In this document: in pieces, positions 10,314 to 34,401 of the stretch
Layout: the number at the start of each line of letters is the position of its first letter
Numbering within the stretch: position 1 is the first letter of the stretch
Source: a virus
IMG/VR virus record: IMGVR_UViG_3300017708_001182
Location: 8,446-72,445 of that record
DNA: 64,000 bases
Direction: 5' to 3' (one strand)
Notes under the pieces: model-generated
The model's database searches: none
What the model saw: the letters and a program-made list of their open reading frames with translations, nothing else
Told to the model about the DNA's origin: nothing
Position numbers and translations under genes: made by a program

Positions 10314-10703
10314 TTAGTGTACTATTTTCAGGATGTCTCCTGTTCTGTAGAGTTGTCCAGCAACTAAGCCAGAGAATAATGCCTCAGCATTGTTAGAATA
10401 TTCAGGAGCTCCTTCTTTTGATACTGTTAACACTTGATCAAAATCATCACCTGTACCAACACTAGATGCATAGTATACCATTGATGTATTATTATCAACA
10501 TATAATTGACCTATGTGTGTTGCAGGTACTAAAGGAATTCCTAGTCCAACAAGAGGAACTAAGTTTTTATCAATGCTTCCTAAGATATTTTCTAAGTCAT
10601 CTCCAGGGTTTACTACTGCATTAGGTAAGTAGGGGCCATTGTATATAATGCATTCAGCATTTTGATATACGGCACAAGTTGGGCAAATTTCAGCGGTTCT
10701 CAT
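10314..10703 (-). CDS. Small fibre-associated protein with Cys-rich CIIYNGP N-domain
   Basis: 129 aa. N-terminus resembles those of 2729-10300, 51808-52134 and 52146-53255. C-terminal [28 protein letters not shown] resembles a short cap motif I recall from phage tail proteins. Confidence 0.7.
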
Positions 10704-10772: not shown

Positions 10773-13700
10773 TTACCTATTTCTTTTTGGGATCGTTACA
10801 TCAAACTCTTTAGCAAAATCTTCATCAAACATTGCAAGATAGTTCACAAATGATTTAGAAAGAGGGAACATCTTCATTAAGTTCTTAGTTGGTTGTGCTC
10901 TTTTTCTAACCTCTTCAGCTGTTCTGTCAGGGTTTGATATGTCAAGTCCTGTAAGCTCTTTACTAAGATGTGTTGCAAATTTACCAATTTGTGATACAGT
11001 TCCAAGAAGAGGCATTCCTGAATCAAGTGTACTTGCCATCTCTACTGGATTATAAAAGAATCCTAGCTCACTAATAAACTTATCTACAACTTTTTGAATG
11101 TATCTAAACTGATTCTTTTTAGCTCTATCATCATCATCATCTGGAGCAAGTGCACCAATAGAAAATGACAGCGCAAGCATGTTAAGTAGAATTAAAAGTT
11201 CTTTTCTTTGATTATATAGATTAGTTTGTATTAAATCTGCAAAGTCTTCTTTAGTAATGTTTGCTTGTACGCCATTTTCTTTATAGTATTTTGTAGTGTA
11301 CCTTTCATAAAGTTCGTCTATTTTTAATAGACCTTCATCTGTACCTTTTATAATACCCTGGATTAAGTTACTTTTATTGGCAATACTTTCAAGAAGAAGT
11401 CCTCCCCATAATCTAGCTCTACCTATCTCATATCTTTCACCTGTAGCTATTCCATTCTCATCTATTTCTACGTTGAAGTCATCAGCAACTTTTCTGAATT
11501 CACTAAAGCGTGTGTCAAAAAGTTTAGGTATCCATCCCTTAAATACCATTAGTGAGCGAAGCCATATGTTCATATTCACTCTCATGTTATCAAAGTCTGT
11601 CATACCTCCTGTTGCAGTTCTAGCAATAGTTCTTGCTACATTAGTTAGACGTTGTAATTCTTTTCTGTTATTTAGATCTAGTCCTGGTACAACAAGCTTG
11701 CCATCTTCTAGTTTCTTTGTAGCGTTTATAGATCTTGTTTTTTGTAGTTCTTTAATCTCTTGTTCAATCTTTGGATTTAACTCTCTAAACTTTTCAGCAC
11801 TCTCAAATCTTGCTTTATATTTCTTCTTTACAAAATCTCTGATGTTTACAAGTTTACCATCTTCAACCATCATGTTGTCTAGAAGAGCCATAAAGACAGA
11901 CTTCTCTATGTGTAATTCAGGCTGTCTAAAGAAGAAGAACAAAGTATCAGAAAAGTTTTCACTACTAGCCATATTCATCCAGCTTGTGATTCCTGCCTGT
12001 TTAAATTTTTCATAAGTACGTTCTTCTTTTAGCGGCATAAAATTATCTAACAACTGTAAGAACATTTTTCTCTCATCGTCATCTTTAAATTTATTACCTA
12101 TAAGTTTACCTTCATACTTTAATACTTCTCTGTATTTAAAGTACTTTCCTGCCAGAGCACTTAATTGAACATTACCACCAAAAGCATTTACAGAACCAGA
12201 TATAAATTCAAAACCTAAAGATCTTGCTTGAGTATATCTATTTAAAGAATCCATTGTTTTTTGAACAGAATACAAACTTTCTCTACCAGTCATTATTTCT
12301 GCACCAGTTGCTTTATTTATAATGTCTGTTATTCTTTTTGTACTAAATCCTATATCAGAATCATCTGATGCATATTTTTGACCATAGAGTGTGGCTCTAA
12401 AGAATTCATCAATAATATCAAGATTCTTCTTAGAACCTGCTTCATATTGTAATCTTCCATTTTTCTTTAAAGCACCTCCAAATCTACCTGTCTTTATGTT
12501 TTTCTTAAACTGTTGTACAGTTTTAGCAAGAAGAAGTTGATCTTCTATCTCAGTTAGGTACTTATACTTGTTCATGTGATTAACATAAAGTAGTAGGTTT
12601 TTAAATACATCTAAACTAACATCAGAGTAGTCATTAGGACCTTCATCTTGAACACTAAAATCAGTAGTGTAGTATTTAGGTATAGAGTTTTCTATTTCAT
12701 TTGTAAGCTCATTGATAGATCCGTATCCAACATCATCAGCATTATTTTGTAGTCGCTCTTTGAATCTGGATATAGGAGGCAAGGAACCATCCCAGGCGAT
12801 ACTTTCTGCCATGCTCTTTCTAACAAATGGTAAAAATGTAGAACGTACAGCATTGTTTATATAACCCATGTCTGCAGCTTTTAAATTCATTTTAGTAACA
12901 AAATTAAAAAGCTCAAGTAATTCAGGATCTTTTTTAATTTCAACATATTCCTTGCTTTCCCACTTTTCTTTTGGATGTCTTTTTAGCACATAATTATTCC
13001 AGCCGTTAAAGTCAGTTCTAGTTACATCCCACATTTTATTAGCATCTAGTATTAACTTTTCTCTAAGTTCACCTTCTGGATTGTTTTTCTTTATTCTAGC
13101 AATAGACCTATCTAGTATAGGTTTAGACTCTTGATAGTAGGCTGGCAAGTTAACATTATCTTTAAGCCACTTCTTACTTCTTGCACCTTCTTCTCCATTA
13201 TCTTTCAATTCTGCATAAAACTCTGGAGCATATTTATATATTAGATTGTTTACAAGGCCACCTTTATCATCCTTTTGATATATAGCAGACACTATCTTTT
13301 TTAAATCACCACCTCTAGCTTTTAGTTTATCCCTGATGTCTAATAGCTCATTAGTTTCTATTAATGATTCTTGATTAGCTTTACCCATTGCAGCATTAGC
13401 CATCTTGTATAAAAGATCTGTAGCTGCTAAACCTATATCTGATAGTCCTCTAAACAATGACTTAAGTCCTCTTACAACTCTTTCTGGACTCATTAATCCT
13501 GTAACGAGATTACGTTCTCCTGAAAACTTAGAACTAAACTCTCCAGCAAGTTTTTTAATTTTTGAACCAGATCTACGAATAGATTCTTGTTGGTCTTTAA
13601 GTTTTTGGACAAGCTCTTTACGTGAAGCTATATTATCTTTGTCTTCTTCTGTAATAGCATCCTTCTCCATTTCTTTAGTGTAGATTAAATCACTAAGTTC

Positions 13701-15602
13701 ATCTGCAAGAGTTCCAAATACTTCTGAAGATGCTATGTATTCTCTCAACCTTGCAGAAAATTCAGAAAGCTCTACTTCTGTTAAGGACTCATCATCAGCT
13801 GGCCTTCCTTCATAAGAGGTCTTGTATTCTGAAATTATATTTGTACCCTCCCTTTCCATTACTGCAATTGCATCAATTAATGGTCCAAGGTTTTGATTAC
13901 CTCTTAAAGATCGTACTGCTTTTTTTATTAGGTTTAATCTCTCTATTTTATATTCATACTCATCATCTGTCTTTGGAGTTTTATCTTCTATAGATTTTTG
14001 AACAGCAACTAATTTTGAAAGCACATCATCAACAACATCTACTCCTGTTAGTTCTGTTTTTTCTGATACAGGTGTAAGTGTAAGAGGATCTATCTTTGAT
14101 GGATCAACACTACCTATCTTGATGCCTTTAATTTGTAAATTGCTTTTTCGATCTCTAGGATTTTCTCTTTTTAAATCCATTATTATTGGTATAGCTCTAT
14201 TCTTAGATATAGTATTTACACCATAGTTATCCAATAGTATTTCTTTATATCTACCAAGCTGTATATCATATGCTCCTTGTTTGTACCAAGCAACATCTTC
14301 AGCACCTTTATAGATACTCATAAACTTCCAGTCATAAATGTTTGCTGTACCATCTTCTTCAACAATCAACAAGTCAATTGTACCTGCTTCTTTTTCTTTA
14401 GTGTCATATATTTGTAATTCAGAAAAGACTAAAGGGTTCTTACCATTTTCTGAAAATGATGCAATAAGATCTGTGTAGTAGGTTTCTAATTTACTATACA
14501 CTTGGTTGTCAAGATCATTATCATAAACAGGCCTTGCTCCAGGGTTAACTCTTCTTGTACCATCACTATTAAAAAATCTAGAATGTGTATCCTCAAAGAA
14601 TTCATGGTACTTAGTACCTAATACACGTTTTACTTCATTGTCTTTCTCTTCTTGAGCTGTAAACTTTTTATCTCCAAGCTTACTTCTATACCAACGCTTA
14701 ACTCTATCGGTTACCCTTTTGGTGATTCTTATATACTCACCATCAACAAGAAGCTCGTAGTAACTTGTAGCTTTCTCCTCATCTGCTAATAAAGGATCTG
14801 CTTTTTGATTAGTTTCTATCTTTCTTAGAGAAGCTCTGGTGTCTTCCACCTTTCTTTGAAAGTCTTTCTGTTTATCTGATAATTGATAATATATTTCTGT
14901 GCTGTCTAGATCAAGAATACTTCCTTCAAACTCACCTCCCAATACTGTTTCAGCAGTCTTAGAAAATACATCAATGTTTGCTTTCTTATACTCACCTCTA
15001 AACCAGTCACTTATAGCATTCCACATTCTCATAAACAAAGACTGGTCAGCTTCTTCTAAATTTACATTAGGGTCGTTTGTAATTATAGCTGTAATCATTT
15101 TATCTACAGCTTCTTTCTTTATCTTACGAATGTTTGGTTTACCATTAGGTAGTTGATATGCTTCAATATCTCTGTACTCAGCTAGAGTATCTTTATATAT
15201 CTGGAACCTACCTATCTTAGATATCATCTCTGTAACAAGCTTAGGATCTTTTTGCTCAATGATTGCTGTAGCAATGTGAACCATTTCTTCTGTAAGTGTG
15301 TTCTGATCTACATTAGCTTCTGATATAGCAATTATACCAGCACCTAAGTCAGCAAGAGCATTTATACTAGACTCTTGAATAGCAGGATTATTTTTTGCAT
15401 ATTCAGTAAGGTCTTTTACATTAACACCCATCTTATCAATTACCTTCTTAACTTTAGCAATTACTTCAGAGGGAGTGTTACGTAGTTCACGTGAAGGTAC
15501 ATTACCATTGTACTTATCCCATAGAGCATAAGCCATGTTCTCTCCTCTAGCATTTACTAGTAGATTCCATTCTGGTAAGTTTATATTTGGACATGTTGCC
15601 AT
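10773..15602 (-). CDS. Giant ejected cargo protein (RNAP-associated cluster) with PD-(D/E)xK nuclease-like domain
   Basis: 1609 aa, directly downstream of the vRNAP. GTIDLLIVEEDGTANIYDWK...YDIQLGRY (about 14250-14390) is a PD-(D/E)xK signature. EEMVH is a degenerate zincin-like motif. Hydrophobic stretch near the C-terminus (LLILLNMLALSFSIGAL). Confidence 0.7.
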   Translation of the reverse strand: MATCPNINLPEWNLLVNARGENMAYALWDKYNGNVPSRELRNTPSEVIAKVKKVIDKMGVNVKDLTEYAKNNPAIQESSINALADLGAGIIAISEANVDQNTLTEEMVHIATAIIEQKDPKLVTEMISKIGRFQIYKDTLAEYRDIEAYQLPNGKPNIRKIKKEAVDKMITAIITNDPNVNLEEADQSLFMRMWNAISDWFRGEYKKANIDVFSKTAETVLGGEFEGSILDLDSTEIYYQLSDKQKDFQRKVEDTRASLRKIETNQKADPLLADEEKATSYYELLVDGEYIRITKRVTDRVKRWYRSKLGDKKFTAQEEKDNEVKRVLGTKYHEFFEDTHSRFFNSDGTRRVNPGARPVYDNDLDNQVYSKLETYYTDLIASFSENGKNPLVFSELQIYDTKEKEAGTIDLLIVEEDGTANIYDWKFMSIYKGAEDVAWYKQGAYDIQLGRYKEILLDNYGVNTISKNRAIPIIMDLKRENPRDRKSNLQIKGIKIGSVDPSKIDPLTLTPVSEKTELTGVDVVDDVLSKLVAVQKSIEDKTPKTDDEYEYKIERLNLIKKAVRSLRGNQNLGPLIDAIAVMEREGTNIISEYKTSYEGRPADDESLTEVELSEFSARLREYIASSEVFGTLADELSDLIYTKEMEKDAITEEDKDNIASRKELVQKLKDQQESIRRSGSKIKKLAGEFSSKFSGERNLVTGLMSPERVVRGLKSLFRGLSDIGLAATDLLYKMANAAMGKANQESLIETNELLDIRDKLKARGGDLKKIVSAIYQKDDKGGLVNNLIYKYAPEFYAELKDNGEEGARSKKWLKDNVNLPAYYQESKPILDRSIARIKKNNPEGELREKLILDANKMWDVTRTDFNGWNNYVLKRHPKEKWESKEYVEIKKDPELLELFNFVTKMNLKAADMGYINNAVRSTFLPFVRKSMAESIAWDGSLPPISRFKERLQNNADDVGYGSINELTNEIENSIPKYYTTDFSVQDEGPNDYSDVSLDVFKNLLLYVNHMNKYKYLTEIEDQLLLAKTVQQFKKNIKTGRFGGALKKNGRLQYEAGSKKNLDIIDEFFRATLYGQKYASDDSDIGFSTKRITDIINKATGAEIMTGRESLYSVQKTMDSLNRYTQARSLGFEFISGSVNAFGGNVQLSALAGKYFKYREVLKYEGKLIGNKFKDDDERKMFLQLLDNFMPLKEERTYEKFKQAGITSWMNMASSENFSDTLFFFFRQPELHIEKSVFMALLDNMMVEDGKLVNIRDFVKKKYKARFESAEKFRELNPKIEQEIKELQKTRSINATKKLEDGKLVVPGLDLNNRKELQRLTNVARTIARTATGGMTDFDNMRVNMNIWLRSLMVFKGWIPKLFDTRFSEFRKVADDFNVEIDENGIATGERYEIGRARLWGGLLLESIANKSNLIQGIIKGTDEGLLKIDELYERYTTKYYKENGVQANITKEDFADLIQTNLYNQRKELLILLNMLALSFSIGALAPDDDDDRAKKNQFRYIQKVVDKFISELGFFYNPVEMASTLDSGMPLLGTVSQIGKFATHLSKELTGLDISNPDRTAEEVRKRAQPTKNLMKMFPLSKSFVNYLAMFDEDFAKEFDVTIPKRNR

Positions 15603-18600
15603 TAGCCTTTACATTTTGCGTTAATTATTTCACCAGCTTGTTCTGGAGTGTATCCAAGTCTTCCAGTTAAAGTTTCAAAGTTTATCATTGAAGCTGCAAA
15701 TGATCTATTGTTTACAGTTATCCTGTCTCCTTTTATAGTTATTACTAAATCTCCCTCTTCCACTTTAGTGTAAGATTTTTTCTTATCTGACTTTACCATA
15801 TAAGGAATTATTTGTTCGTCAATCACTTCATTTTCTACTTTCATCATCCTGTTATCAATAATAGATTCTTTAGCTTCTGTATAAAACTCATTAGCTCTAA
15901 AGCTATCTCCAAGTGCGTTAATTGGTTTGTATACAAAATAAAGTCTCCCATTATTGTCCGCTGTTGTAAGAGGAGTTATTTTATCAGCATCATAAACCTT
16001 TTTATATAATCCTCTATTTATGTAAGAGTAATCTCCAGCTTTACGCATTGCAGCTCTTTCTGTAGCTGATATCTTAAGATCTACCCAAGAGAATACTTCA
16101 AACTCTCCACCTCTTCCACCGCTTACTAATTGTGGTATGTCACCTGCTTTTATAGCACCTCTTAAATTATTATACCCAAAGAATGATATACTTGGGTAGT
16201 AAAATCTTCCATTCTTATCTTTTAGTGCATTCAAGGTTGTAGAAGGCACTATATCACTATCATTCCAATTGTTTCTTTGAAATACTGAAAGGTTATGAAA
16301 GTCTTGTAAGTTAGGTAATTTTTCTATTCTAGACAAGGTTTTATTATATATCCTTGAAAAGTCTTCATAAGGAATAAGTGATGTAAATGATATAGGAGAG
16401 TTGTTAAGACCTGATTGTAATATAGACAATTCAACTATTCTATCATACAAACTTGTTTCACCTTTTAAATACTCTCTTAGTTCACGAAAAGAATATATAA
16501 TATTATTTTGATCATATACTTTGTTGTCTCTGTTTGCAAGCTTTAAATTAGTTGGTGTGTTTCCAGCTGCTCTAGAAGATTGCACTTCCAATATATCTAT
16601 AATCTGATTATTATATAAAGGATGTTTTGGGTTTTTCTTTACGGTATCAATAAAAGACAAAACCTGAGAACCCACTCCATTATCAGCCAACAATACCTTT
16701 TGTAGATCATTGTTTAAGTTTTGATCTGTTTGTACAGCCCAATCAAATAAATCATTCATTGCTTTTCTAGCCACCTTTACAAACACTTTATTAGGCAAGT
16801 TTACATATGGCATTAATGTTTGTTGAAGAACATCCCTAACTCTACCTGCATCAGAGGGAAGAAAGTTAGCTACTGCATCTGCAGCATCATTAATTTTATC
16901 AGCTAGGTTTCCAATATACGAGTTATTAAGTATATCATCTGCAGATGAAATAATAGTATTTTGAGCTGAAGCAAACTGAACATTCTTTTTAAATACTAAA
17001 GATGGATCATTAAAGTTTGTTGTGTCCCAGTTGGTACCCTGCGTAACTGTGTATAACTGGTTAGCCATCTTAGAATACTTTAAGAATTCTTTTAGTATAA
17101 ATATCTGGTCTAAGTTTTCCTTAGCAGTAAGTTTTTCTTTACCTAATGTACCACGTAGAGAATCTTTGCTAGGTATGACTTTAGGTAGTTTCTTTTCTTG
17201 AGCTTCTGTCAGCCCTCCATAATTAGCTATAGTCTCACCTATAAAGTCATCTATAAATATAAACTTATATCCTGCATTCTCAATTGACTGTATGTGATCA
17301 CGAATTATAGGTTGATTCATAAAGTAGGCTACAGTGTCTACTGGTACACCTATCTTTACAAGAAACATAAATGCAGATGTTAGGTTTGGAGTAGCACCCA
17401 TCTCCATAATCCATGGTCCTGCAGCTATATCTACATAACCATCTATAAACTGACTGTTTATATTTGATATTAGTTTTTCATCTACATTATTTATACCAGA
17501 TAATGATGGATACTCTTTACCATCTAACTCAACTTTATTGTATTCTGCAAATTTAATTTCTCCATCTCCTAAAAACCTTGCATCTTCTAATGATACATAT
17601 TTTAAATTATCTTTGTTTACGTATATAATACCTCTCTGATTAAGTGAGTGATTAGTTTGATTCACTGCAGCAATTCCAATAGCTTGTTTACCTGCTACAA
17701 AAGCCTGTCTTAATCTAGACATAAATCTTCTGTCAAGCATGTTTGATACATCCGAATAGTCAAAAGATTTACCTGTTGTACGTTCAACAATATCTCTAGC
17801 AATATTCTCTAAATCAGTAGAATCATTTGGTTTAATAAGATTTTTAAAGTTTTCTCTAGAAGTAATTATATTTTCAGATGACTGTATGAATTCATTTTCT
17901 AAAGATTGCTTATATAATCTATTAACTATTGCATCTTTTAAATCTAATTCCTTTAAAGTTTCTGCAAACTCTTGTACTATATCTTCTTCTGATACCATTC
18001 CAAGTTTACTTAGTAAGTTGTTTAACTCTTCATCTTGCTCTATTTTTATGTTACCAGCATTAAAATCTGTAAGAATTCTACCAAGTGCGTCCTGTTGTTT
18101 TTTATTAAGTAGTTCACCTCTATCAAACATTTTACTAAACTTATCTTTTGCCTCTTTACCCATTCCAAAGTATGGAACCATTTTAAGTTTGCCATTTTGA
18201 TAAAATACATTCTTAAAGTACATTGATAATTTATCAATATCAAAATCCGATCCTACCTTTTCTACAATTGCTGATGGTACAACAACACTACCTCCAAATT
18301 CTTGTGGTAAGAATTTCTTTATTTTAAATGCATCAATAGAGTTTTGTGCTTGTGTTGGTATACGAAAAGCTACACCGCTTAATATCTTTTGACCTTCTTC
18401 TGTATTATTTAGATAGTCAAGAAGATCTTCATCAGACATATTACTATTAAACCAACGACCCACCATAACTTCCATTACTCGCTTACCGTCTTTATCTTCA
18501 TAGAACTTAAGAACATCAGATGTATATCCTTCTTTGCCATTAATTTCTGTCTTAGCAATTCTATTAGCTTCAAACAATGCTGAAGATATCTGCACTAATT

Positions 18601-21600
18601 GTGAACCTGATATTTTAGGACTTACAATCTGTTTGTCTATAATAGAATATAAAATATTTCTAATTATTTGGTATGCAGGGGTTGCTTCAAGAACACCATC
18701 ACCATTTAAAAATGCTGTAAGAGCATCAGAAATATTATCATTTGTTTCTCTTCTAAAAATTTCTTCACGAAGTGTTTTGACAACCTTTGATCTACCAGTT
18801 TCTTCATCAAGAACAATTTCCCCATTTACTTCAGACAGACCTAGACGTTTTAATAAACCCTGATAACCTTCATTAGTCATCTCTTCTAGCAACGATTGGT
18901 TATTAACAATTTCCTTGTATAAATCAGAACTTGCTTCTTTCTCTTCCTTAGATAGAGTTAACCATTTATCAAATCCACCTTTGTAATCGACAGGCACTCC
19001 GTTCTCCATAAGGTCCATGGTGATAAGCTTAGTAATCTGGGACCCTCGTGTTACTAATGCTTTATCTTTAGAACGTACTTCAGATTGTAAGCTTATTATA
19101 GATAGTGGAACATTAACTATAGACTCATACTCAGCATCATTAAATGATCCATCTTCTTCATTGTATGTAACATGTGATGATTCAGCTCCTACCTTTCTAC
19201 CAGATTCAAACACCATGTAATCTATGTTCTCCTTCTGCATTTTGTTGTACAATCTAACTCCATTATCTGCACCAAGCTCTTTCATCACTCTGTAAGATAG
19301 AGGATACAATGAAAACTTATCAAGCACTATATTATTATATGAAGAAGGATTTCCATTCTTACCTAACTTAGTTCCTGATGTAATAGGTTTTAAGGGATCA
19401 AACGCACTCTTTATTTTAGGATTACCTTCTTTTAAAAGTTTATTCTCTTCTTCTAATAAGGTTAATTCTTTATCACGTTTCTCCCAGGCAACCTCATATC
19501 TAAATTGCTTCTCTTCATTCTCATTCCAATCTGCTGATCTAATTCTAAAATTACGATAGGCTTTATAAAGTATACTACCACCACCATCAGTTTCTTCAAA
19601 TCGACCATAACCTGGAAGATTTATAACACCAAGAACATCTTTATGAGATACTGTTTTAAAATAATCTTGAGTAAAGTTAGTATATCCTATATCATCTTTA
19701 CTATACCCTTCATTAAACACTGTATTATAAGCCACATTCATTTTAGGTGAATTGCTTACAATAGCCTGTCTTGGTGATAAGAAACTTTTAATACGCTTAA
19801 GTTCATCTTTGTATTGATATGGATCTGAGTAAATTAATTTATGCATTTCTATATTAGCCACTACATAGTTTACACTCATTAATATCATCTCATTAGTAAA
19901 CTGATCTTTACTTACTTTTGATAACCCTTCTATATCTTTTACTTCAATAAACTTATCTCCCTCTACTATCATCCCAAATCTATTCATGTAAGAAACTGTA
20001 TTGCTTACATCTTTGAGTATAAAGTTACGTACAGCAGATGCTATTTCACTTCCATGTAGTTTATATAGTTCTTCTGGTGTACGTGTTGAAGAAACTATTT
20101 CATTGTGTAATTTATCACCAAGGATACTTTTAAAGAAACGTAAGTCTTTACTATCTCTACCTGCAGCAACTGGACGATCTTCTCTAGATAGTCTTACCTC
20201 TGATAGGAAGTACTCTTTGAATATTGCATTTATATCAGCCATTCCTCTAACTAGGTCAGATGTTTTTAAAGGATTACCCATGTATATCATATGCTCAAGA
20301 GAGGCATCACCAGGAACTAGATTAATATATTGACCATTACGATTCAGATTAAGTTCTTGAATAAATCTTTGCCTTGCAGTTAATCTACTAGAAGTTGTAA
20401 GTCTATTTTTTATCTTATTATCAATACCACCTACATAACCTGGTTTTAAAAGCTCGCTAGCTCCTGCTTTCTTTTTACCATCTTCAGTAAACATTCTTCT
20501 TAAAAGATTAGATCCTTCACTGAATACATCTTTTAATAAGTATTCATACTTTGTACCTGCTAATTGATTTAGATTACTTATTGAAGCAAGAGCATCATGT
20601 AATTCAGAGACAGCATTTGTACCCATAAAAACTTGTACACGCTCACCTTGTAAGTTAAAATATGTACTACTAAATTCAGGATTAGAAGCAACTTCTTGAA
20701 TAATCCCTAGCTCTAACAATCGTTTGTTTACATCTAGAGATCTTGTAGAAAATGTAGATATTTCTGGAGTGTTACTTAAACTTCTAACTAGCCCACCAAG
20801 CACTTCCTCAAACTTTTTCTTGTTTGCAGGACTTAGTTTATTGTAGTCTGAAGGACTAAAATTTATTCCTAATGTTGATAAGAAATTAAGTTTACCAGAT
20901 CTTGTTGTTAAATTAATCTTATTTAGCTTAGATCTATTTACAATATACTTTCTTTTCTTTTCATCATAATCAAAAAATCCTTTGTTTGCTTTTGATAAAG
21001 TAGATATAGCACCAATATATTTATCTCTTAATTGAAGAGCAGCACTAGACAATGCAGCATCACCTACAGCAATCTCACCATTTTCAAACACAAATAAGTT
21101 CTTAACATCTGGTGCATACTTTTTAAATGTCTTCCATAAACCAGAAAGTAATTGAATACCGTGTGTTGTATCAATATTACTAAAGTCAACTCCAGCTTGA
21201 AGAACAGAGCTTCTCGTTAAACGTGAGTACAGCATTTCATATGTAGAATCTTCAATTGCTAAATTTTTCAACCTCTCAATCATTTCTTCTACACTTCTAG
21301 ATGTGTGAAGTTTAGCCATCAGTGTAATAAAAGTTTTACTTGAAGAGACAAGTAATCTTCCACCAATAGAGGATACCACATTATTTCCACTTTTATCAAC
21401 TATAGGATTAGCAGCAAGAAGTAATTTAATAGCTACATTTGCTTTTCTAAAGTTATCTATTTTTGAAGCATCAAATCTATTACTTTCTCTAACTCTATCC
21501 TCATCATTTAATTGCAAAGAATCATTCTCATCAAACTCTACACTGTATGCTCTTATGTATTCTCTATGTTTTGCTTCAAGTCTTGGCCAGTCTTTAAGCA

Positions 21601-22051
21601 CATCTATCATCAATTGACGATTATTTTTAATAATGTCTTCTAGTCTTTCTTTTTGTGCCTTAGTTAAATCTTTGTTGTTATTAATAATATCATTGATAGC
21701 ATTCTCTTTACCTTTGATCGTTGCTAATACACCAACTTTTAAATCATTGTAAAGTGTACTTGCATTTATTTTTTCTATATTAAATAAGTTTTCATCTGAC
21801 TTGATAAAATCATTTAACATTAGAAATGTCATTTCTTGAATAACATCAAAAGTTTGCTTATCGCTCAACACTTTAGAAGGTGTATCATCAGCTTGTTGTG
21901 AATCAAACAAATCATCAATAGGTGCATCACGAAATTCTATTTCAGGAACCTCACCATTGTACTTAGCCCATAGGTAATATGCCTCACGCTCCCCTTTAGC
22001 AGCTACAAGTCTTTTCCATTCAGGCAATTTTATGTTAGGACATACTCCCAT
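15602..22051 (-). CDS. Virion-packaged DNA-dependent RNA polymerase (phi14:2 gp66-like)
   Basis: 2149 aa. Catalytic DxDxD motif GSDFDIDKL (DFDID at 18233-18247) preceded by FRIPTQ, as in crAss-like two-barrel vRNAPs. Size and position fit. Confidence 0.92.
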   Translation of the reverse strand: MGVCPNIKLPEWKRLVAAKGEREAYYLWAKYNGEVPEIEFRDAPIDDLFDSQQADDTPSKVLSDKQTFDVIQEMTFLMLNDFIKSDENLFNIEKINASTLYNDLKVGVLATIKGKENAINDIINNNKDLTKAQKERLEDIIKNNRQLMIDVLKDWPRLEAKHREYIRAYSVEFDENDSLQLNDEDRVRESNRFDASKIDNFRKANVAIKLLLAANPIVDKSGNNVVSSIGGRLLVSSSKTFITLMAKLHTSRSVEEMIERLKNLAIEDSTYEMLYSRLTRSSVLQAGVDFSNIDTTHGIQLLSGLWKTFKKYAPDVKNLFVFENGEIAVGDAALSSAALQLRDKYIGAISTLSKANKGFFDYDEKKRKYIVNRSKLNKINLTTRSGKLNFLSTLGINFSPSDYNKLSPANKKKFEEVLGGLVRSLSNTPEISTFSTRSLDVNKRLLELGIIQEVASNPEFSSTYFNLQGERVQVFMGTNAVSELHDALASISNLNQLAGTKYEYLLKDVFSEGSNLLRRMFTEDGKKKAGASELLKPGYVGGIDNKIKNRLTTSSRLTARQRFIQELNLNRNGQYINLVPGDASLEHMIYMGNPLKTSDLVRGMADINAIFKEYFLSEVRLSREDRPVAAGRDSKDLRFFKSILGDKLHNEIVSSTRTPEELYKLHGSEIASAVRNFILKDVSNTVSYMNRFGMIVEGDKFIEVKDIEGLSKVSKDQFTNEMILMSVNYVVANIEMHKLIYSDPYQYKDELKRIKSFLSPRQAIVSNSPKMNVAYNTVFNEGYSKDDIGYTNFTQDYFKTVSHKDVLGVINLPGYGRFEETDGGGSILYKAYRNFRIRSADWNENEEKQFRYEVAWEKRDKELTLLEEENKLLKEGNPKIKSAFDPLKPITSGTKLGKNGNPSSYNNIVLDKFSLYPLSYRVMKELGADNGVRLYNKMQKENIDYMVFESGRKVGAESSHVTYNEEDGSFNDAEYESIVNVPLSIISLQSEVRSKDKALVTRGSQITKLITMDLMENGVPVDYKGGFDKWLTLSKEEKEASSDLYKEIVNNQSLLEEMTNEGYQGLLKRLGLSEVNGEIVLDEETGRSKVVKTLREEIFRRETNDNISDALTAFLNGDGVLEATPAYQIIRNILYSIIDKQIVSPKISGSQLVQISSALFEANRIAKTEINGKEGYTSDVLKFYEDKDGKRVMEVMVGRWFNSNMSDEDLLDYLNNTEEGQKILSGVAFRIPTQAQNSIDAFKIKKFLPQEFGGSVVVPSAIVEKVGSDFDIDKLSMYFKNVFYQNGKLKMVPYFGMGKEAKDKFSKMFDRGELLNKKQQDALGRILTDFNAGNIKIEQDEELNNLLSKLGMVSEEDIVQEFAETLKELDLKDAIVNRLYKQSLENEFIQSSENIITSRENFKNLIKPNDSTDLENIARDIVERTTGKSFDYSDVSNMLDRRFMSRLRQAFVAGKQAIGIAAVNQTNHSLNQRGIIYVNKDNLKYVSLEDARFLGDGEIKFAEYNKVELDGKEYPSLSGINNVDEKLISNINSQFIDGYVDIAAGPWIMEMGATPNLTSAFMFLVKIGVPVDTVAYFMNQPIIRDHIQSIENAGYKFIFIDDFIGETIANYGGLTEAQEKKLPKVIPSKDSLRGTLGKEKLTAKENLDQIFILKEFLKYSKMANQLYTVTQGTNWDTTNFNDPSLVFKKNVQFASAQNTIISSADDILNNSYIGNLADKINDAADAVANFLPSDAGRVRDVLQQTLMPYVNLPNKVFVKVARKAMNDLFDWAVQTDQNLNNDLQKVLLADNGVGSQVLSFIDTVKKNPKHPLYNNQIIDILEVQSSRAAGNTPTNLKLANRDNKVYDQNNIIYSFRELREYLKGETSLYDRIVELSILQSGLNNSPISFTSLIPYEDFSRIYNKTLSRIEKLPNLQDFHNLSVFQRNNWNDSDIVPSTTLNALKDKNGRFYYPSISFFGYNNLRGAIKAGDIPQLVSGGRGGEFEVFSWVDLKISATERAAMRKAGDYSYINRGLYKKVYDADKITPLTTADNNGRLYFVYKPINALGDSFRANEFYTEAKESIIDNRMMKVENEVIDEQIIPYMVKSDKKKSYTKVEEGDLVITIKGDRITVNNRSFAASMINFETLTGRLGYTPEQAGEIINAKCKG

Positions 22052-25000
22052 TAACCTTTACATTTTTTGATTAATATTTCTTTTATTTGTTCCTTAGACA
22101 AACCTTTATCCTCTAGCTCTTTTACATCAGCACTATCAAATTGATCTAAGTTAACATCCATTTCTGTTTTCACTATACCTTCAAGTTCTGATGAGTTGAC
22201 TTCTGATATACGTTTATTTATTAAATTCTCTAAATTATTAAGTTCGTCTTCAGCCTCACTAGTTTGCTGTGTTGGTTGAGATATAGTAAAAGACTTTTTA
22301 ACATCTCTCAACATTGCCTCAGTAGATTTTCGAAGACTTGGGCTCAACTCTGCTTCTAAATCATATTCATAATTTGCTACTGTATTTTCATATAACTCTA
22401 TAGTAGGATTAGGCGAATTAAATAATTCTTGTACTGCTGGCTCAAATTCAGTTATTGGAGTCTCAAGTTCTACTAAATTTCGCTTAATAGTTTTAACCTC
22501 ACTAGTTGGTTGTGTTGATTGAACATATAATTTTATGTTTGCTCCAGGTATAGCAATTTCGCCAGAATTATCTGTTCTTTCTAGTCTAGGTGAACCTGCT
22601 CCAGTTGTACCTTTTTTTCTAAGACCTCTAAAAATAAATTTAGTGTTGTTTTTATCATAAACAACATCTCCATCCTTTAATGTAGATTTATCCACAAGAA
22701 CTTTTTCAACCTCACTAGTTGATTGTTTTACTGGTTGTGTAGGAGCTTCTGGCTTAGCTACTTTTTCATAAGCTTCTTGTGCAGCCTTCTTTATCATACC
22801 AGGCTTTATACTATTTAACACAACTGCTTTTAGTTGGTCATCAGTAATGTTCTTGGACCTAAATTCAGCAAGGTTACCACCAGGTACTATTTCTATACTA
22901 TCTTTTGATATTTTACCATCTATGTCTTTAGCTTTAAATAATACTTTTTTTCCTGTTTGAGGAGATGTATATGTATTTACAGTATTACCATCAATAACAT
23001 ATCCTTCAGATTTTTTAAGTGGTATGTTTGAAGGCTGTGAACTTGGTTCTGGTATTTGAAAATCATCAGCTGTATTTTCATTAATGAAATATACACCTTC
23101 TCTATTAGGTTCACCCTCTAGTTTAGGTTTCATTAGTGTATATAACGGTAATTCAAAATCTTCTCTACCCTTACTTGATAATAAATAAGATTGATAGTTA
23201 GGCCAAACAACAGATTCTATATCACCCTCTGAAGATATAGATATTATTTGTTCAAACTTTTGATTGATGTCTAGCGTCTTAGCTCTATTAACATTGTTAA
23301 ACATGCCTTCTAGAGTATTTATAATTGCATCTTTGTTTAGTTCTAATGCTGATGGTGTAAACTTAAATGTAACACCTTGATTAGAAAGGCGTAACACAAG
23401 TTTACCATCTTTATCTTTTTCAAAGAATGCACTATTGTTACCTGCTTCATTAGCTGGTATACCCCAATAAGTTACACCTTTTAAGAATTCAAGAATTCGT
23501 AAAGAACTATTGCTGTTAATTCCTTCAGTAGATAATAAGTTTTTAGACAACTGTAATATAGAGTCATATATTGCAGATGCATCTTTAGATGTGTGTTGTC
23601 TATTCTTTAGCTTTACAAGTCCATTTTTTAATTCTAAAAATACAGAACCAAGAGCTGATGTATATTGAGTTGTTCCTTTAGATTGTGTGTTGTTAGTAGT
23701 AGGTATGCTTAGTAAAAGCTCAGTTTCTAAATCTGAGTCTGTAATAAGACCTGCATCTTTTACAGATGTTCTGGTAGAATATATTCTATTACCACTACTA
23801 TCTAACTCAAACTGGGGAACACCAAAAGATGCTGTTATATTAACAGGCACTCCTAAAGCTTCTTGAGTAAGTATACCGTCTCTAAACTTCTTATACTCTT
23901 TATTAATAAAGTCTTTTGTTTCTGAAGATGTACCTTCTCTAAACATTGTACCATTACTAAAACCTTCTTCTGGAATAGTTTGGAATATAGCACTATCTAG
24001 TAATGCTTTTTCTTCTGGAATAGGTTTACCATCTACACCTACAGGTAGTCCAGTTTCATCAACCATTACCATTACAATCATTGAATCTTTAAATTCATCA
24101 ATAAGTGCTTGATCATTATCTAATGCCAATTCTATTACACCTGGCAATATCTGATCTTGTGTTTTACTTGTTACGTAAACACCACGTATCTTATCTCTGT
24201 TATCAAAAGAGTCTAAATCTAATCCAAACTGATTAGCTCTAATTTCATCAGGCTTCATCTCTTCACCACCTCTAGTGTCTCTAAATGTTGTAGATCTAGG
24301 AAGAACATCTAATGATTTTTTTGATTCAGGTTCGTATGAATTATCTGATGAATATGTAGGTATACCTTTATCAGCTGTAGACATCACTGCATTAAGGTTT
24401 TTTTGTTGTTCTTCTTCTTCAACCTTCTGAGCATTGTACTCATCTATAATAGATTGAAATCTATCTACAATAACCTTTCTAGCTTTGTACTCAGATGTTA
24501 AATTAACTAAGTCCGATTCAAGTTGTCTAGTGTTATTTATAGCCTCAAGTAAACCATCTTCATTTACATTAGTGTCTGCAGATAAATCATTTGTTAGGGC
24601 AAAGTTAGCTAGCTCTTGTTTTAACAGTGGCCATACCTCTTCTATATTTTCACCAGTAACAGCTGCATCTAATAATTCATTAAGGTATTGTGAGTAGTCT
24701 TGGTCTACAATGTACGAACTCTTAATAGCACTTCTAAGCAACTTAACTGCTGACTTAATAGTTTTCTCTGCAGACTTAGAAAGCTTCTTAGCTGCCCTTA
24801 TAGAGTTTTTTAGATTTTTACTACTATCAAGTAATAGAGCAACTTGATTTTTTAATTCTTTTAAAAACTCCCCACTGTCTTCAGGAAGGTCAGTTATTTG
24901 ATCTGCAAAATCTGAAAAGTATGAAATATTAAATTGAAGCTCTTCTTTCTCTAGCTCAGCATTATTTATCACTTCAGTGAGATCAGCCTGCATAGACGTT

Positions 25001-28000
25001 AAATTATTTAAAGCTCTGGTAAATGATCTAGTAGCTTTAGAAAAGTTAAGCTTAATCTTTTTTCCAGTCTCTTTCATCTTCTGGATGTTTGCAAGATCTT
25101 CTTTAACTTTAGCTAGTTTTTCTCTAGCTTTACTAATAACCTTATTAACCTCATCAAGGTTTTCTTTTGACTCCTCACCCAATTGAGCTAATGTCTCTAA
25201 GCGAGATTCTCTATTGTTTTTAAGTGTAAGTTTCTCTTTAGCAAGTTCTTCTGTAGATAAAAACAGTTCTTTAGATGTCTTCTGATTTTCATTTTCTACA
25301 CTTCCAATCTTAATAATTCTAGCTTGATCAAAACCTTTTTTAGCAACAAAGTGAGTACGGTTAAGCTCTTTTTTTGCCACCTTACCTTTTGGTGTTAGGT
25401 ATACAAAATATAATTTATCATTTTGATACTCAAGTCTACCTGGTCGTTTACCACCAAAGGGTTTACCAAAGTTGTATTCAAAGATTTCGTTTCTATGATT
25501 GTAGTAATAGTTGGCTGTGCTGTTAGCTTGTAAAGTGGACGCTTTACCTACACTAAGATTTTCAAACTCTTCAGTAGAAATATCTGACTCTTTACCTGTA
25601 TCAAGGTTCTTTATCTTAAGTGTTCCATTTTCATTTACACCTAATACACTAAATCTAGATATAGGTACAGTAGAATTTAATGGTTGCTTAGAATAATCTG
25701 CACCCTTTCCAGCAAAGTATTCAGTATTTAACTCTATGTCCTTTTGCCCTTTTTTAGTTTTTACACTAACTGTTTCAGTAGGTCCGCTAGGAGTTGTTGC
25801 ATCTTCTGGTCTATATAATATATATTTACTAGGATTGTCTTTTATATCTTGATATGCTTTTACAAAAGATTTTCTAGCTAATGACATTTCTGATATGTCA
25901 TCTAGCAATTGACCAAGCTCCTCTTTCTCAACATCAATAATATCCATTTCCTGAATATCAAGAGCAGCATTATTAAATGCATCTATGTTACCCTGAGCAA
26001 GTCCATCTAAAACTTCAGAGATATTTATTCCAGCAGCAGTTAACTTAGGCATCATCTCTAATAGTCTGCTATCAAAGTCTGCAACTTTACTAGCTGCATA
26101 TATCATTTGATTCATCACGTCTGGACCATATTTTAAAAGCTTCTTGCCATCCTTATTTAAAATAGGATTACCTTCATCATCTTTTAATATTTCACTTCCG
26201 TAACGTAAGTTAAGTGATTGGTATAATGACTTTACATCATCTGCAGTTTTTTCAAATTTACTAAGTCTATTTAGATATGCTTCTCTTGTATCTGATTCAA
26301 GAGCTTTACCTTCAGCTTGCAGTTGAGCAAAGCCTTCTTCTGTACTAGCAAGTGTTTTATATTGATTAATGTCAGCTTTTACTAAATCATATCTGCCATA
26401 TTTAATTCTAGGTGTAAGATAGTTGATAATGTAATCAGCTTCTGTATTTTTACTTCCTATAACATCACCATTCTTAATCTGCTCCTCTCTTTCCTTTTGT
26501 AAAACAGTTCCTCTGTTTACAGCATCAATAGTTTCCTTTGTGAAATCTGATAAATTAGCGTTATTAAGAGCATCAATTGCTTGAGCTGTATTTTTCTTTC
26601 TAGCTCTGTCTTGTCTAAACCTACCTCTTGCTAACATTATAGATCCAGAAATTCCACCAATAAGTGCATTCTTACCACCCTCATTACTAAAAGCACCCTC
26701 TGTAAGACCAACACCAATAGAGTTTATCCAACTTGTAGCTTCACCATTTAAAGCCTTTTTATAATAATCTTTTGTAGTCACTGTAGCAGTGTATTGAGCT
26801 AGTTCTTCAAAAGACTCTGATATAGAGAATGTGTATGGTCTTATTTTATTTAATCTAGATAGGAATGGGTATTTTACTTTAGGTGTTATATACTTACCAC
26901 CCTCATAAGCAATATCATCTATCTCTCTAACAAGTTGATTGGCTATTCCTTTCTCTGCTTTATATCCACTACCTAATATCTTTGGAAACTGAATATAGTT
27001 AGTAGCTGATAAGACTGCTACGTTAGCAAAGAATGTAGCATTTCCTGATCCTTCTGTAGCATCATTAATAGCTTTAAGTGCTTCACCTGTTGGAACTACA
27101 CCAAATTCTGCTACGTGTGCATCCACAAGCTCTTTTCTAAACTCATTACTACTGTGTAAAGCTTCTATTCCTGCTTCACCGCTTGTTGCTAAACCTGCAA
27201 CAGTTATCCTACCTCCTTGATTTAATGCATTGTAATTAGAGAGAAACTTATCAGATAATGATCTCACCTTACCATATGTGTCAGATACTTTAGATGCTCC
27301 TGCTAAACCTGCTTCTGTAGCAGCAAGTGTTTCTGCTCCTTTACCAACAGAAAATAATCTTGAAGCATACGGAATACTTGATAATGCTTTTGTATATGCA
27401 CCTCCTGATAGAGCAGCACCAGCAGCAAACCCTAAGTTCTTTACAACACCATCCCACAAGAAGTTACCTGTAAACCAGTATTTAGGAGAATACCAATTAG
27501 CATCTCTTTCTGAAGCTGTATAGTAGTTTGGTAATGCATCTTCTGCATATTTATTTATTTCATCTAAAGATCTGTTAAACTCATTATCGTAGAATGAAGA
27601 AAACTTACCATCTGCAATTGCTTTAACAGTTCCATTAACAAGACCTATTGTTGATTGTAAGAATGTTGTACCTGTAAGTAACAATCCTTTACTAACACCA
27701 TTTACCATTTTAGAACCAAAACTTTGACTTTGTGCAGCAGCATCTTCGTTATCAAAGTTTCCTGGCATGAAGTAATCATATCTACCTTTTTCATTACCAG
27801 CATATTCATCAAGTGTTCTTATCTTAGCACCTTTGCCAGAATCACGACCAGCACTAGCAGACTTTATAAGATCAGCAAGAGCTGAACTAGTCTGACTACT
27901 TCCACCACCTATACTAGTAAAAGGATTTACATAAGGTCTATTTGGAAGAGGAGATCCATCAACAGGTCCAGTTCTATAGCCTCCAAATCTCTGTTGCATG

Positions 28001-28098
28001 AATTGTTCATTCAACAAAGGGTTGGGAGAAGATAACTGAGTTGGAGGAGGGATGACAGTCTTTCCACTCTGTGCTTTTGGTAAATTCTCTTTAGACAT
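22051..28098 (-). CDS. Giant ejected cargo protein upstream of the vRNAP
   Basis: 2015 aa. Gly/Ala-rich hydrophobic N-terminal region, central coiled coil, modular C-terminus ending KKCKG. Position matches the crAss-like large cargo genes. Confidence 0.7.
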   Translation of the reverse strand: MSKENLPKAQSGKTVIPPPTQLSSPNPLLNEQFMQQRFGGYRTGPVDGSPLPNRPYVNPFTSIGGGSSQTSSALADLIKSASAGRDSGKGAKIRTLDEYAGNEKGRYDYFMPGNFDNEDAAAQSQSFGSKMVNGVSKGLLLTGTTFLQSTIGLVNGTVKAIADGKFSSFYDNEFNRSLDEINKYAEDALPNYYTASERDANWYSPKYWFTGNFLWDGVVKNLGFAAGAALSGGAYTKALSSIPYASRLFSVGKGAETLAATEAGLAGASKVSDTYGKVRSLSDKFLSNYNALNQGGRITVAGLATSGEAGIEALHSSNEFRKELVDAHVAEFGVVPTGEALKAINDATEGSGNATFFANVAVLSATNYIQFPKILGSGYKAEKGIANQLVREIDDIAYEGGKYITPKVKYPFLSRLNKIRPYTFSISESFEELAQYTATVTTKDYYKKALNGEATSWINSIGVGLTEGAFSNEGGKNALIGGISGSIMLARGRFRQDRARKKNTAQAIDALNNANLSDFTKETIDAVNRGTVLQKEREEQIKNGDVIGSKNTEADYIINYLTPRIKYGRYDLVKADINQYKTLASTEEGFAQLQAEGKALESDTREAYLNRLSKFEKTADDVKSLYQSLNLRYGSEILKDDEGNPILNKDGKKLLKYGPDVMNQMIYAASKVADFDSRLLEMMPKLTAAGINISEVLDGLAQGNIDAFNNAALDIQEMDIIDVEKEELGQLLDDISEMSLARKSFVKAYQDIKDNPSKYILYRPEDATTPSGPTETVSVKTKKGQKDIELNTEYFAGKGADYSKQPLNSTVPISRFSVLGVNENGTLKIKNLDTGKESDISTEEFENLSVGKASTLQANSTANYYYNHRNEIFEYNFGKPFGGKRPGRLEYQNDKLYFVYLTPKGKVAKKELNRTHFVAKKGFDQARIIKIGSVENENQKTSKELFLSTEELAKEKLTLKNNRESRLETLAQLGEESKENLDEVNKVISKAREKLAKVKEDLANIQKMKETGKKIKLNFSKATRSFTRALNNLTSMQADLTEVINNAELEKEELQFNISYFSDFADQITDLPEDSGEFLKELKNQVALLLDSSKNLKNSIRAAKKLSKSAEKTIKSAVKLLRSAIKSSYIVDQDYSQYLNELLDAAVTGENIEEVWPLLKQELANFALTNDLSADTNVNEDGLLEAINNTRQLESDLVNLTSEYKARKVIVDRFQSIIDEYNAQKVEEEEQQKNLNAVMSTADKGIPTYSSDNSYEPESKKSLDVLPRSTTFRDTRGGEEMKPDEIRANQFGLDLDSFDNRDKIRGVYVTSKTQDQILPGVIELALDNDQALIDEFKDSMIVMVMVDETGLPVGVDGKPIPEEKALLDSAIFQTIPEEGFSNGTMFREGTSSETKDFINKEYKKFRDGILTQEALGVPVNITASFGVPQFELDSSGNRIYSTRTSVKDAGLITDSDLETELLLSIPTTNNTQSKGTTQYTSALGSVFLELKNGLVKLKNRQHTSKDASAIYDSILQLSKNLLSTEGINSNSSLRILEFLKGVTYWGIPANEAGNNSAFFEKDKDGKLVLRLSNQGVTFKFTPSALELNKDAIINTLEGMFNNVNRAKTLDINQKFEQIISISSEGDIESVVWPNYQSYLLSSKGREDFELPLYTLMKPKLEGEPNREGVYFINENTADDFQIPEPSSQPSNIPLKKSEGYVIDGNTVNTYTSPQTGKKVLFKAKDIDGKISKDSIEIVPGGNLAEFRSKNITDDQLKAVVLNSIKPGMIKKAAQEAYEKVAKPEAPTQPVKQSTSEVEKVLVDKSTLKDGDVVYDKNNTKFIFRGLRKKGTTGAGSPRLERTDNSGEIAIPGANIKLYVQSTQPTSEVKTIKRNLVELETPITEFEPAVQELFNSPNPTIELYENTVANYEYDLEAELSPSLRKSTEAMLRDVKKSFTISQPTQQTSEAEDELNNLENLINKRISEVNSSELEGIVKTEMDVNLDQFDSADVKELEDKGLSKEQIKEILIKKCKG

Positions 28099-30775: not shown

Positions 30776-30782
30776 AATTTAA

Positions 30783-30813
30783 CAAATGTAATGTGATTAA
30801 TTTTATTATCCAA
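30783..30813 (-). promoter_or_regulatory. Bacteroidota-type sigma-A promoter upstream of the giant cargo/vRNAP operon
   Basis: Minus strand reads TTG - 20 nt - TACATTTG, then 7 nt to the ATG of 28100-30775. Confidence 0.6.
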
Positions 30814-30840
30814 GAATGGCTAACAGGTTTTAGTAATGTT

Positions 30841-30861
30841 TTATAATCAATTTAATTATAA
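30841..30861. promoter_or_regulatory. Conserved 21-bp upstream motif, copy A (TTATAATCAATTTAATTATAA)
   Basis: 20/21 identical to the copy at 49385-49405. Palindromic TTATAA ends with a 9-nt spacer, about 27 nt upstream of the -33 element. Confidence 0.6.
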
Positions 30862-33800: not shown

Positions 33801-34401
33801 GAGCTTCATGTGAATATCCTAACTTCTCCATTCTTAAATGATCCTTTAACTTATTGGCTTTATACCCCTTGCCAGTTTTAGGATCATACATCATGTGTGG
33901 TTCAAACTTCTTAACTTTACCACCTTTTTTCATAGGAAGAGAACTCATTGCACCAGATATATCACCACCACCACCTATACCACCACCAGATATAAGATCA
34001 CCTAATCCACCTTCACCACCTTCACCACCAAACATTGACATTAGTTGAGGTAACATAGACATCATGCCACCCATTCCTCCTCCGCTACCACCAGACTGTT
34101 GTTGTTGTCCTGCAGCAATTTGAGCTTGAGTTTTCATATCTTCCAGTGTCTCATCATAACTCTTTTTACCCATTTGCTTTGCTACTGTATCAAACAAGAA
34201 AGCCTCATCTATACGAGTGGGTGGACGGTTACCTTTAGGTGTTTCTATGTTTGGAATCATAGCTCCTATATTAGCTTTCTTAGCCATAAGTTTTCTTACA
34301 GCTTTTCCATGCTTTTTCATGAAGGCATCCTCAGAAGGAAACTTCTTGTAAAACTCTGCTTCAGACTTAACGCCTGCTATTTTTAAAAATTCAGCTTTCA
34401 T
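30856..34401 (-). CDS. Cargo protein (C1/gp45-like) with low-complexity linkers and a peptidoglycan-binding-like motif
   Basis: 1181 aa, many xAQGG/MxxGG motifs, GNSH...VEVENE...VVYGDL conserved block, DVRRYQ...ITVDGDFGEQT PG-binding-like motif (about 31880-31990), Gln-rich C-terminus. Confidence 0.6.
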   Translation of the reverse strand: MKAEFLKIAGVKSEAEFYKKFPSEDAFMKKHGKAVRKLMAKKANIGAMIPNIETPKGNRPPTRIDEAFLFDTVAKQMGKKSYDETLEDMKTQAQIAAGQQQQSGGSGGGMGGMMSMLPQLMSMFGGEGGEGGLGDLISGGGIGGGGDISGAMSSLPMKKGGKVKKFEPHMMYDPKTGKGYKANKLKDHLRMEKLGYSHEAPKAQGGAATPQFDFDLGDSGPSRMGRYNPDGSAESFLQGAGRIYNSRAVQDFGIPIVSDVISIGKQLKAQKETLARAKQNRMLTELTLDAAKSEPEKIEREYVRPEDVQNTGEEFFPIYGVGTNVLKNGGMFSDPGYVPLVNPNQQKSFKQGGVLGSNSYLVPKAQGGFDMANVSYGGGSMGGAGKQFGQMIGLYEGTDAGSNIGGTIGGTIGSAFGPIGSAVGSFIGSGIGDLLDRDDRRTRKENERAERAQKELSYTAIAPAIQAGYASHMEQGGNIPSNPSMLDTMKMGGELKTLWGGKAETVSYNPYAGGESIQFKGNSHDYRDPKTGQTGIGVAYGEESVANNEAVVEVENEPAQQLKDGGGAENLVVYGDLKIPEEYLEEIGDDRAKGKKFKKYVSDVLNKDEAKINKKMEKAADLGLESDNTVFGQLERSTADVILKGSDMKLKNIAEKKNILADLQSALNETFDELEIKGNEFISKNKIVKDPERAMNNMAEEGATVTETTTNGNFNTQLGGDDVGMTVEEAIAAGFVLNEETGEYEKSTGETVDPIDSETDALDEVRPGQGRNKDTGLYGNVTQKEYEAAKKANPWFDWENFDPTKDADVRRYQKEFNKKAKEAGSDKRITVDGDFGEQTSSARFTPAAPGEEPKVEVAKIKEEPTVTETTTVSPNRIPFPVLPPSVDTKGLDPNQLLGEYAALSSNTLAPVYAQTYQPNLRVPYDISLQDMKNDVISQSRALQRNATLQGNPAALALAQAPTYQALNQINAEEFRQNQSFKNQVYSENLDTLNRARLTNLGIYDQQQDRQDEAVAKTKATTIAALNSISSKYQQKQLEGRLKQVFANLYPTYAFDDDYRARVQQSARFSLPGGTVSGIPGLSTPGFNPNLQQVPGVIGGLQGIIQQQQQYQEEQRRKMEEQGLNPDIKYRKIDRALNRGINTEDIYDYVPMQEQEGAYAKRGKTVKKNHKNSNILKKLRGL

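Follow-up and report, generated by a model that had tools for sequence, protein, structure and literature searches.

Three giant cargo genes and their matched junctions

The stretch of DNA analyzed here, 64,000 nucleotides (nt) of the IMG/VR virus record IMGVR_UViG_3300017708_001182 (positions 8,446 to 72,445; hereafter, the window), carries a block of three giant genes on the minus strand, whose facing protein ends hold matched motifs with one cysteine each. Open reading frame (ORF) calling placed the first giant cargo protein (P0001, 2015 amino acids (aa)) at 22051..28098, a virion RNA polymerase (P0002, 2149 aa) at 15602..22051, and a third giant cargo protein (P0003, 1609 aa) at 10773..15602. 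The 2149-aa protein has a DFDID catalytic motif at residue 1269 (nt 18233-18247), and tblastn with this protein matched 141 phage records, many of them annotated as putative RNA polymerase of crAss-like phages. Based on the motif and the matches to annotated subunits, we identify it as the virion RNA polymerase of a crAss-like phage. By sequence comparison, the three genes are an RNA-polymerase cargo block, the counterpart of gp67-gp66-gp65 in phi14:2 and of gp47-gp50-gp49 in crAss001. Proteomics of phi14:2 and crAss001 reported the counterpart proteins as packaged in the virion, and by analogy the window polymerase is probably packaged and ejected too.

Both junctions read TAATG on the minus strand (junction 1 at 22049..22053 and junction 2 at 15600..15604), with one base common to the stop of the upstream gene and the start of the downstream gene, and each 1-nt overlap lies within an 18-nt core that differs at one base between the two. 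The final 17 aa of the 2015-aa protein, ...EQIKEILIKKCKG (22054..22104; cysteine codon at 22060-22062), face residues 1-36 of the polymerase, MGVCPNIKLPEW... (21944..22051; Cys4 codon at 22040-22042). Likewise, the final 17 aa of the polymerase, ...EQAGEIINAKCKG (15605..15655; cysteine codon at 15611-15613), face residues 1-36 of the third protein, MATCPNINLPEW... (15495..15602; Cys4 codon at 15591-15593), all on the minus strand. These translations and overlaps, with a ...KCKG C-terminus and an MxxCPN..LPEW N-terminus at each junction, agree with a preliminary description of this DNA, made from the sequence alone, which had reported TAATG and the KCKG and MxxCPN motifs.

The two N-termini are identical at 24 of 36 positions, as described before, and BLASTP of the polymerase against the 1609-aa protein aligned them with 27/44 identical residues (E=3e-14). 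The remainder of these two proteins appeared unrelated, again in line with the earlier statement, as the next best BLASTP segment had E=0.023 and no alignment was convincing. Identity between the two C-termini is 9/17, the number given previously; taken alone this match has E=0.79, but both segments stand at the extreme C-terminus. The junction DNAs are ~66% identical to each other, with many synonymous differences outside the 18-nt core, indicating selection on the peptides rather than a recent DNA copy.

A cysteine census that took in every large ORF of the window revealed 4 cysteines in the 5773 aa of the three giant proteins, which coincide exactly with the four motif cysteines. The first protein has C2013 alone, the third residue from its C-terminus; the polymerase has only C4 and C2147, and the third protein has C4 alone. 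The other ORFs of the window average 1.46% cysteine, with 18-42 cysteines in several fibre-like proteins. From this average, 84 cysteines are expected in 5773 aa (Poisson P about 7e-31), and the probability of four cysteines landing one in each 4-residue junction end is about 6e-12. The junction cysteine pattern exceeds chance.

Structure prediction with AlphaFold2, using small alignments, gave an extended polymerase N-terminus over residues 1-9 (including Cys4), followed by helices at 10-19 and 21-30, with a predicted local distance difference test score (pLDDT) of about 80. The C-terminus of the 2015-aa protein was modeled as a helix-loop-helix (1989-1997 and 2002-2013) whose last helix ends at the cysteine (pLDDT 78-85). 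Foldseek of the N-terminal hairpin model against PDB returned nothing below E=8, Pfam searches on the termini gave noise only, and the best ESM Atlas score for the N-terminal 60 aa (0.78) was uninformative.

Other similarities of the three proteins were mostly distant. HMMER returned 1989 polymerase matches, 679 of them at 1e-30 or better, and the polymerase core is only ~25-33% identical to relatives of the phi14:2 and crAss001 type. The 2015-aa protein has a weak match to PHROG 32390 and shares 43-46% identity with the N-terminal portion of fused relatives (see below), and residues 300-467 of the 1609-aa protein gave a weak PD-(D/E)XK or exonuclease-like signal. No match at an E of 0.01 or better was obtained in a PDB sequence search with each of the three proteins, and megablast of the region against phage records gave no match.

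Terminal cysteines in split and fused relatives

Scanning IMG/VR with the N-terminal motif retrieved 68 loci of ~14 distinct lineages. With one exception, the ORF directly upstream has a single cysteine 1-7 residues before its end, and the 1000 aa flanking the junction on each side almost never contain another. In the apparent exception (L077), an inserted gene of 573 aa separates the polymerase (cysteine at -9) from the CPN-LPEW protein (Cys5); the polymerase of L077 has Cys3 at its start, opposite an upstream ORF with a cysteine at -2. With 10-kb flanks taken in, the full three-protein series is present in two lineages (L086 and L129), in which junction 1 has the CPN-LPEW start and junction 2 has a cysteine at -3 opposite one at position 6 or 3, in quite different sequence. 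An acidic amphipathic helix ending in the cysteine accompanies the CPN-LPEW start in 13 of the 14 lineages and is absent at junctions with other N-termini. In the C-terminal alignment the sole invariant column is the cysteine.

The same positions are occupied in cultured and named relatives. In phi14:2, the single cysteine of gp67 is its final residue, gp66 has Cys3 and Cys2179 of 2180 residues, and the only cysteine of gp65 is Cys3. In crAss001 the only cysteine is at -3 in gp47 and at position 5 in gp49, and gp50 has Cys5, one internal cysteine and one at -9. The gp47 gene is on the strand opposite gp50 and gp49 with the pair kept, so that neither adjacency nor translational coupling is needed. 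Each of crAss002, p-crAssphage LMMB, cr114_1 and Flavobacterium phage FpV4 has the cysteine pair at its one split junction. Among relatives that keep the pair, the genes overlap by 1 or 4 nt or are separated by gaps of 1-46 nt, and on this ground we rejected a programmed frameshift or read-through fusion at TAATG as the meaning of the overlap.

To cover polymerases more broadly, HMMER was queried with the C-terminal 1150 aa of the window polymerase, yielding 150 representatives with mutual identity of at most 50%, of which 133 had at least 2000 aa. Of these, 131/133 have a cysteine within the final 10 residues, usually among the final three, and the overall cysteine frequency among the polymerase representatives is 0.045%. 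The two exceptions have no cysteine near the C-terminus and both look truncated, one of them (P0155) also being without a start methionine. Only five representatives have a cysteine in the first 10 residues, and they are the five split-size polymerases (2155-2572 aa).

In every one of the 25 clusters of third-protein relatives, position 4 is the site of the only cysteine. These relatives occur in a short form of ~1610 aa, the size of the window protein (10773-15602), and a long form of 2060-2170 aa (P0006, P0008, P0014 and P0021) with a variable insert of ~500 aa. As the insert sits directly after the N-terminal module, the module is a separate unit kept at the extreme end.

Across the relatives compared, the number of cysteines is twice the number of junctions, C- and N-terminal cysteines are equal in number, the first protein never has an N-terminal cysteine and the last never has a C-terminal one. 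The preliminary description had noted that the first window protein is without the N-terminal motif and the last without the C-terminal motif, and the bare outer ends of the chain proved general. It had also proposed a cognate docking pair, which holds in part: the comparative data strongly favour pairing of a C-terminal cysteine with the next N-terminal one, but the invariant element is the cysteine pair and not KCKG or CPN-LPEW, as the flanks are quite different in phi14:2, crAss001 and the second junctions of L086 and L129. Strict adjacency of the paired genes, which it expected, is not required (opposite strands in crAss001, an inserted gene in L077). The preliminary description had counted independence from adjacency against docking, although such independence argues for a function at the protein level; it had also counted a lack of cysteine conservation against it, and the cysteines are conserved across phi14:2, crAss001, the IMG/VR lineages and the 131 polymerases. 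In a literature search that included full texts and key crassvirus papers, neither these cysteines nor linked cargo proteins came up. As a pattern in sequences, the terminal-cysteine rule is kept across the phage order and suggests that the proteins are tied head to tail into one thread.

Relatives with fused genes provide a further comparison. In the nearest sister lineages (L071, L073, L076 and L146) the first two proteins are one ORF, in which the part resembling the first protein aligns until its residue ~1750-1800 and the polymerase part aligns from residue 62. The ~250 aa between the aligned parts contain a zincin-like segment and no cysteine, no C-terminal helix motif and no CPN-LPEW. 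Thus, both cysteines and both motifs are present with two chains and absent with one. The window and its relatives L142, L143 and L145 have three separate genes and carry a copy of the module at junction 1. Fusion at junction 1 in the closest sister lineages makes the module there look like a copy of that at junction 2. Fused forms of the block also include cr114_1 gp021 (4272 aa) and many metagenomic proteins of 4000-4800 aa, which are like the window in modules and order and have a cysteine pair at the remaining split junction. These fused polyproteins differ from the window in that a peptide bond replaces the proposed disulfide, and the motifs and junction cysteines are absent at the fusion point. 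The latter also led us to reject the window motifs as remnants of a polyprotein cleavage site.

The fused and split loci showed several other features. In three of the fused ORFs (L071, L073 and L076), the segment standing in place of the junction module contains YHEAFEAVF, about 1080-1090 aa from the start of the ORF portion covered by the locus, where other crass phages carry a zincin HExxH ~200 aa before the C-terminal cysteine; it may be a degenerate protease site. The HExxH stands ~200 aa before the C-terminus in crAss001 gp47, crAss002 gp32 and the 1957-aa protein of LMMB, whereas the first window protein is without it. The fused ORF of first protein and polymerase in L146 is broken by a single frameshift (L146:2200-2400) with overlapping frames and no cysteine at the break, which is probably an assembly error in the contig rather than a true split. 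Linker peptides of the QPTQQTSE type are present in the tail of the 2015-aa protein (window 22254-22740) and recur near the fusion region in L076 and L146.

A candidate head-to-tail disulfide chain and its alternatives

We propose, with a probability of roughly 0.6, that intermolecular disulfides connect the cargo proteins head to tail into a pseudo-polyprotein. The polymerase would be bonded at both ends, through its C4 to C2013 of the first protein and through its C2147 to C4 of the third protein, giving one thread of ~5800 residues. This thread would stand in, post-translationally, for the single polyprotein that relatives encode as a fusion. The helix and hairpin module (CPN..LPEW..AY.LW) would serve as a lineage-specific docking aid, probably bringing the two thiols together before oxidation, and with the 1-nt overlap both ends might emerge successively from the same ribosome. 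Disulfides do form in crassvirus particles, as seen in crAss001 (Bayfield 2023, PMC10172136). The proposed link would arise within the assembled particle, away from the reducing cytoplasm, and could hold the cargo order fixed during ejection; the reducing cytoplasm of the next host would reopen it and free the polymerase. The purge of cysteines would fit very dense packing in a compartment that turns oxidizing, where stray thiols would mis-pair. From the sequences we infer the bond, the docking, and the role in ejection and release.

Several observations weigh against this proposal. Some relatives have one to seven extra internal cysteines, the helix and hairpin models have only moderate confidence, and in L077 the presumed partner of the CPN-LPEW protein ends without the acidic helix. 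The gut habitat of these phages is anoxic, which puts the oxidant in question, and thioredoxin families were not found in the phage's own genome record (73.5 kb, estimated 64% complete). Because the two motif pairs of the window nearly duplicate each other, they would allow polymerase-to-polymerase links or skipping of the polymerase and cannot fix the order alone. Two further results were counted neither way. No Erv1/ALR thiol oxidase was found in the same 64% complete record, but control genomes were unmatched too, making this uninformative; and a modeled complex between the C-terminal 60 aa of the 2015-aa protein and the N-terminal 60 aa of the polymerase scored 0.23, below the mark of 0.32.

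Other ways of accounting for the paired cysteines were weighed against the same evidence. If the termini dock and the cysteines bind a common metal ion or make a non-covalent contact in place of a disulfide, the same pairing pattern is expected, and both the cytoplasm and the gut are reducing. Each terminus, however, has one cysteine, and no second conserved cysteine or histidine is nearby in any lineage, so one junction would not supply a normal three- or four-ligand site; zinc hooks and zinc clasps have at least two cysteine or histidine ligands per chain, and the window termini have one cysteine with no conserved histidine nearby. In addition, the near-total purge of other cysteines is what mis-pairing of stray thiols by oxidation would produce, and we regard coordination or simple contact as unlikely. 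It also seems improbable that each terminal cysteine acts alone, for example in a bond with the portal, the inside of the capsid or DNA or in a homodimer, with the proteins not linked together. Some smaller cargo-like proteins upstream of the block do have a lone terminal cysteine and no obvious partner in the next gene, namely an 861-aa protein of LMMB (at -2; L138:931-3516), crAss002 gp30 (at -8; L136:1316-2989) and a 598-aa protein of FpV4 (at position 5; L137:2767-4563). Cysteines acting singly would nevertheless leave unexplained why the first protein has no N-terminal and the last no C-terminal cysteine, why the two kinds are equal in number, and why they are lost jointly at fusions.

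The near identity of the 18-nt core at both overlaps, and the resemblance of the junction-1 module to a junction-2 copy, might instead indicate that the matched junctions are a by-product of DNA-level events, such as segment duplication or TAATG coupling signals, with no role in protein contact. Such an origin is already largely refuted, and we give it very little credence, since the residues are kept despite synonymous differences outside the core, pair-keeping relatives range from a 4-nt overlap to a 46-nt gap, and the crAss001 genes are on opposite strands. Finally, a cysteine at each end is reminiscent of split inteins and of native chemical ligation, and the termini might become peptide-bonded after translation through protein ligation or trans-splicing via the cysteines. 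This seems scarcely credible, because only 0-8 residues follow the C-terminal cysteine and only 2-6 precede the N-terminal one in the proteins compared, and no intein blocks, no His-Asn before the N-terminal cysteine and no Pfam hit were detected; in the window, two residues follow and three precede the respective cysteines, and no HN was found. A signal for CaaX-type or N-terminal lipidation was likewise rejected on general knowledge, given bacterial hosts and a cysteine placed anywhere from -1 to -9.

If the disulfide chain is correct, a bolder extension can be entertained, tentatively and with less confidence than the chain itself. The unit of helix with cysteine, stop-start overlap, and hairpin with cysteine might be a portable gene-splitting cassette, with which a phage could divide a giant polyprotein gene and yet deliver a single covalent thread, and in which the disulfide acts as a redox-cleavable linker opened by the host cytoplasm in place of a protease, and a copy from junction 2 to junction 1 might have created the three-gene state of the window's clade.

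Comparison with known systems and neighbouring genes

The blocks of phi14:2 (gp67-gp66-gp65) and crAss001 (gp47-gp50-gp49) are like that of the window in gene order, sizes, the central DFDxD polymerase and the terminal-cysteine census. They are unlike it in their short flanks (MACK.. and MSKRC..), without the CPN-LPEW hairpin and the acidic C-terminal helix. Within the crassvirus particle, inter-subunit disulfides are also found in the tail barrel, the fibre hubs and the gp57 dimer of crAss001 (PMC10172136); those bonds lock structural proteins side by side, whereas a head-to-tail chain of ejected proteins is unreported there. Among podoviruses, T7 gp14-16, P22 gp7/16/20, and the N4 virion RNA polymerase (vRNAP) with two ejection proteins are internal proteins expelled ahead of or with the DNA, as proposed here. 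Passages in two papers indicate that such internal ejection proteins are probably partly unfolded when expelled (PMC10172136; PMC13434306). In the literature searched on podovirus ejection proteins, a covalent end-to-end linkage is not described.

The docking domains of polyketide synthases and non-ribosomal peptide synthetases (PKS/NRPS), to which the preliminary description likened the termini, are similar in having short helical elements at facing C- and N-termini, mostly of adjacent genes, that would set the order of a chain. PKS/NRPS docking domains are non-covalent, cysteine-independent and orthogonal, whereas the window pairs are paralogous with a conserved cysteine pair, and Pfam gave no docking-domain hit above noise at either terminus. 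The likeness is an analogy only. An order code of the PKS/NRPS kind, as claimed earlier, was not borne out: the two motif pairs of the window are paralogues (27/44 and 9/17) and not orthogonal, and hence they are unable by themselves to encode order.

Crassvirales are the most abundant human gut phages, and the packing, ordering and expulsion of their very large protein cargo still await an explanation (Bayfield 2023, PMC10172136). A covalent head-to-tail link, if true, would account for the near absence of cysteine in the giant proteins and for the free fusion and splitting of their genes in evolution without loss of function, and redox state by itself could set both the order of exit and the later release of the polymerase. 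The small terminal modules could also act as natural tags for disulfide-linked protein chains.

Directly upstream of the block, at 28100..34401 on the minus strand, two ORFs of 891 aa and 1181 aa have zero cysteines in the census and are probably further cargo proteins. Fibre-like ORFs on the minus strand at window positions 10314-10703, 2729-10300, 52146-53255 and 57426-60404 have a similar cysteine-rich N-terminus, with three or four cysteines in residues 1-30, often followed by Y-x-G-P. This stretch may be a common attachment or metal-binding module.

Two observations concern gene calling in the relatives. The annotated start of crAss002 gp33 (L136:12011-24748) is probably 32 codons too far upstream, as Met33 followed by Ser-Cys equals the MSC start of the LMMB homologue and fits the terminal-cysteine rule. 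Use of TAG as a sense codon is known in some crAss-like phages. The cr114-like cargo genes (L070:16248-29066 and L001:11989-12120, cr114_1; L079 and L085) contain many in-frame TAG codons, one of which sits inside the N-terminal motif, and these genes are readable only with TAG as a sense codon.

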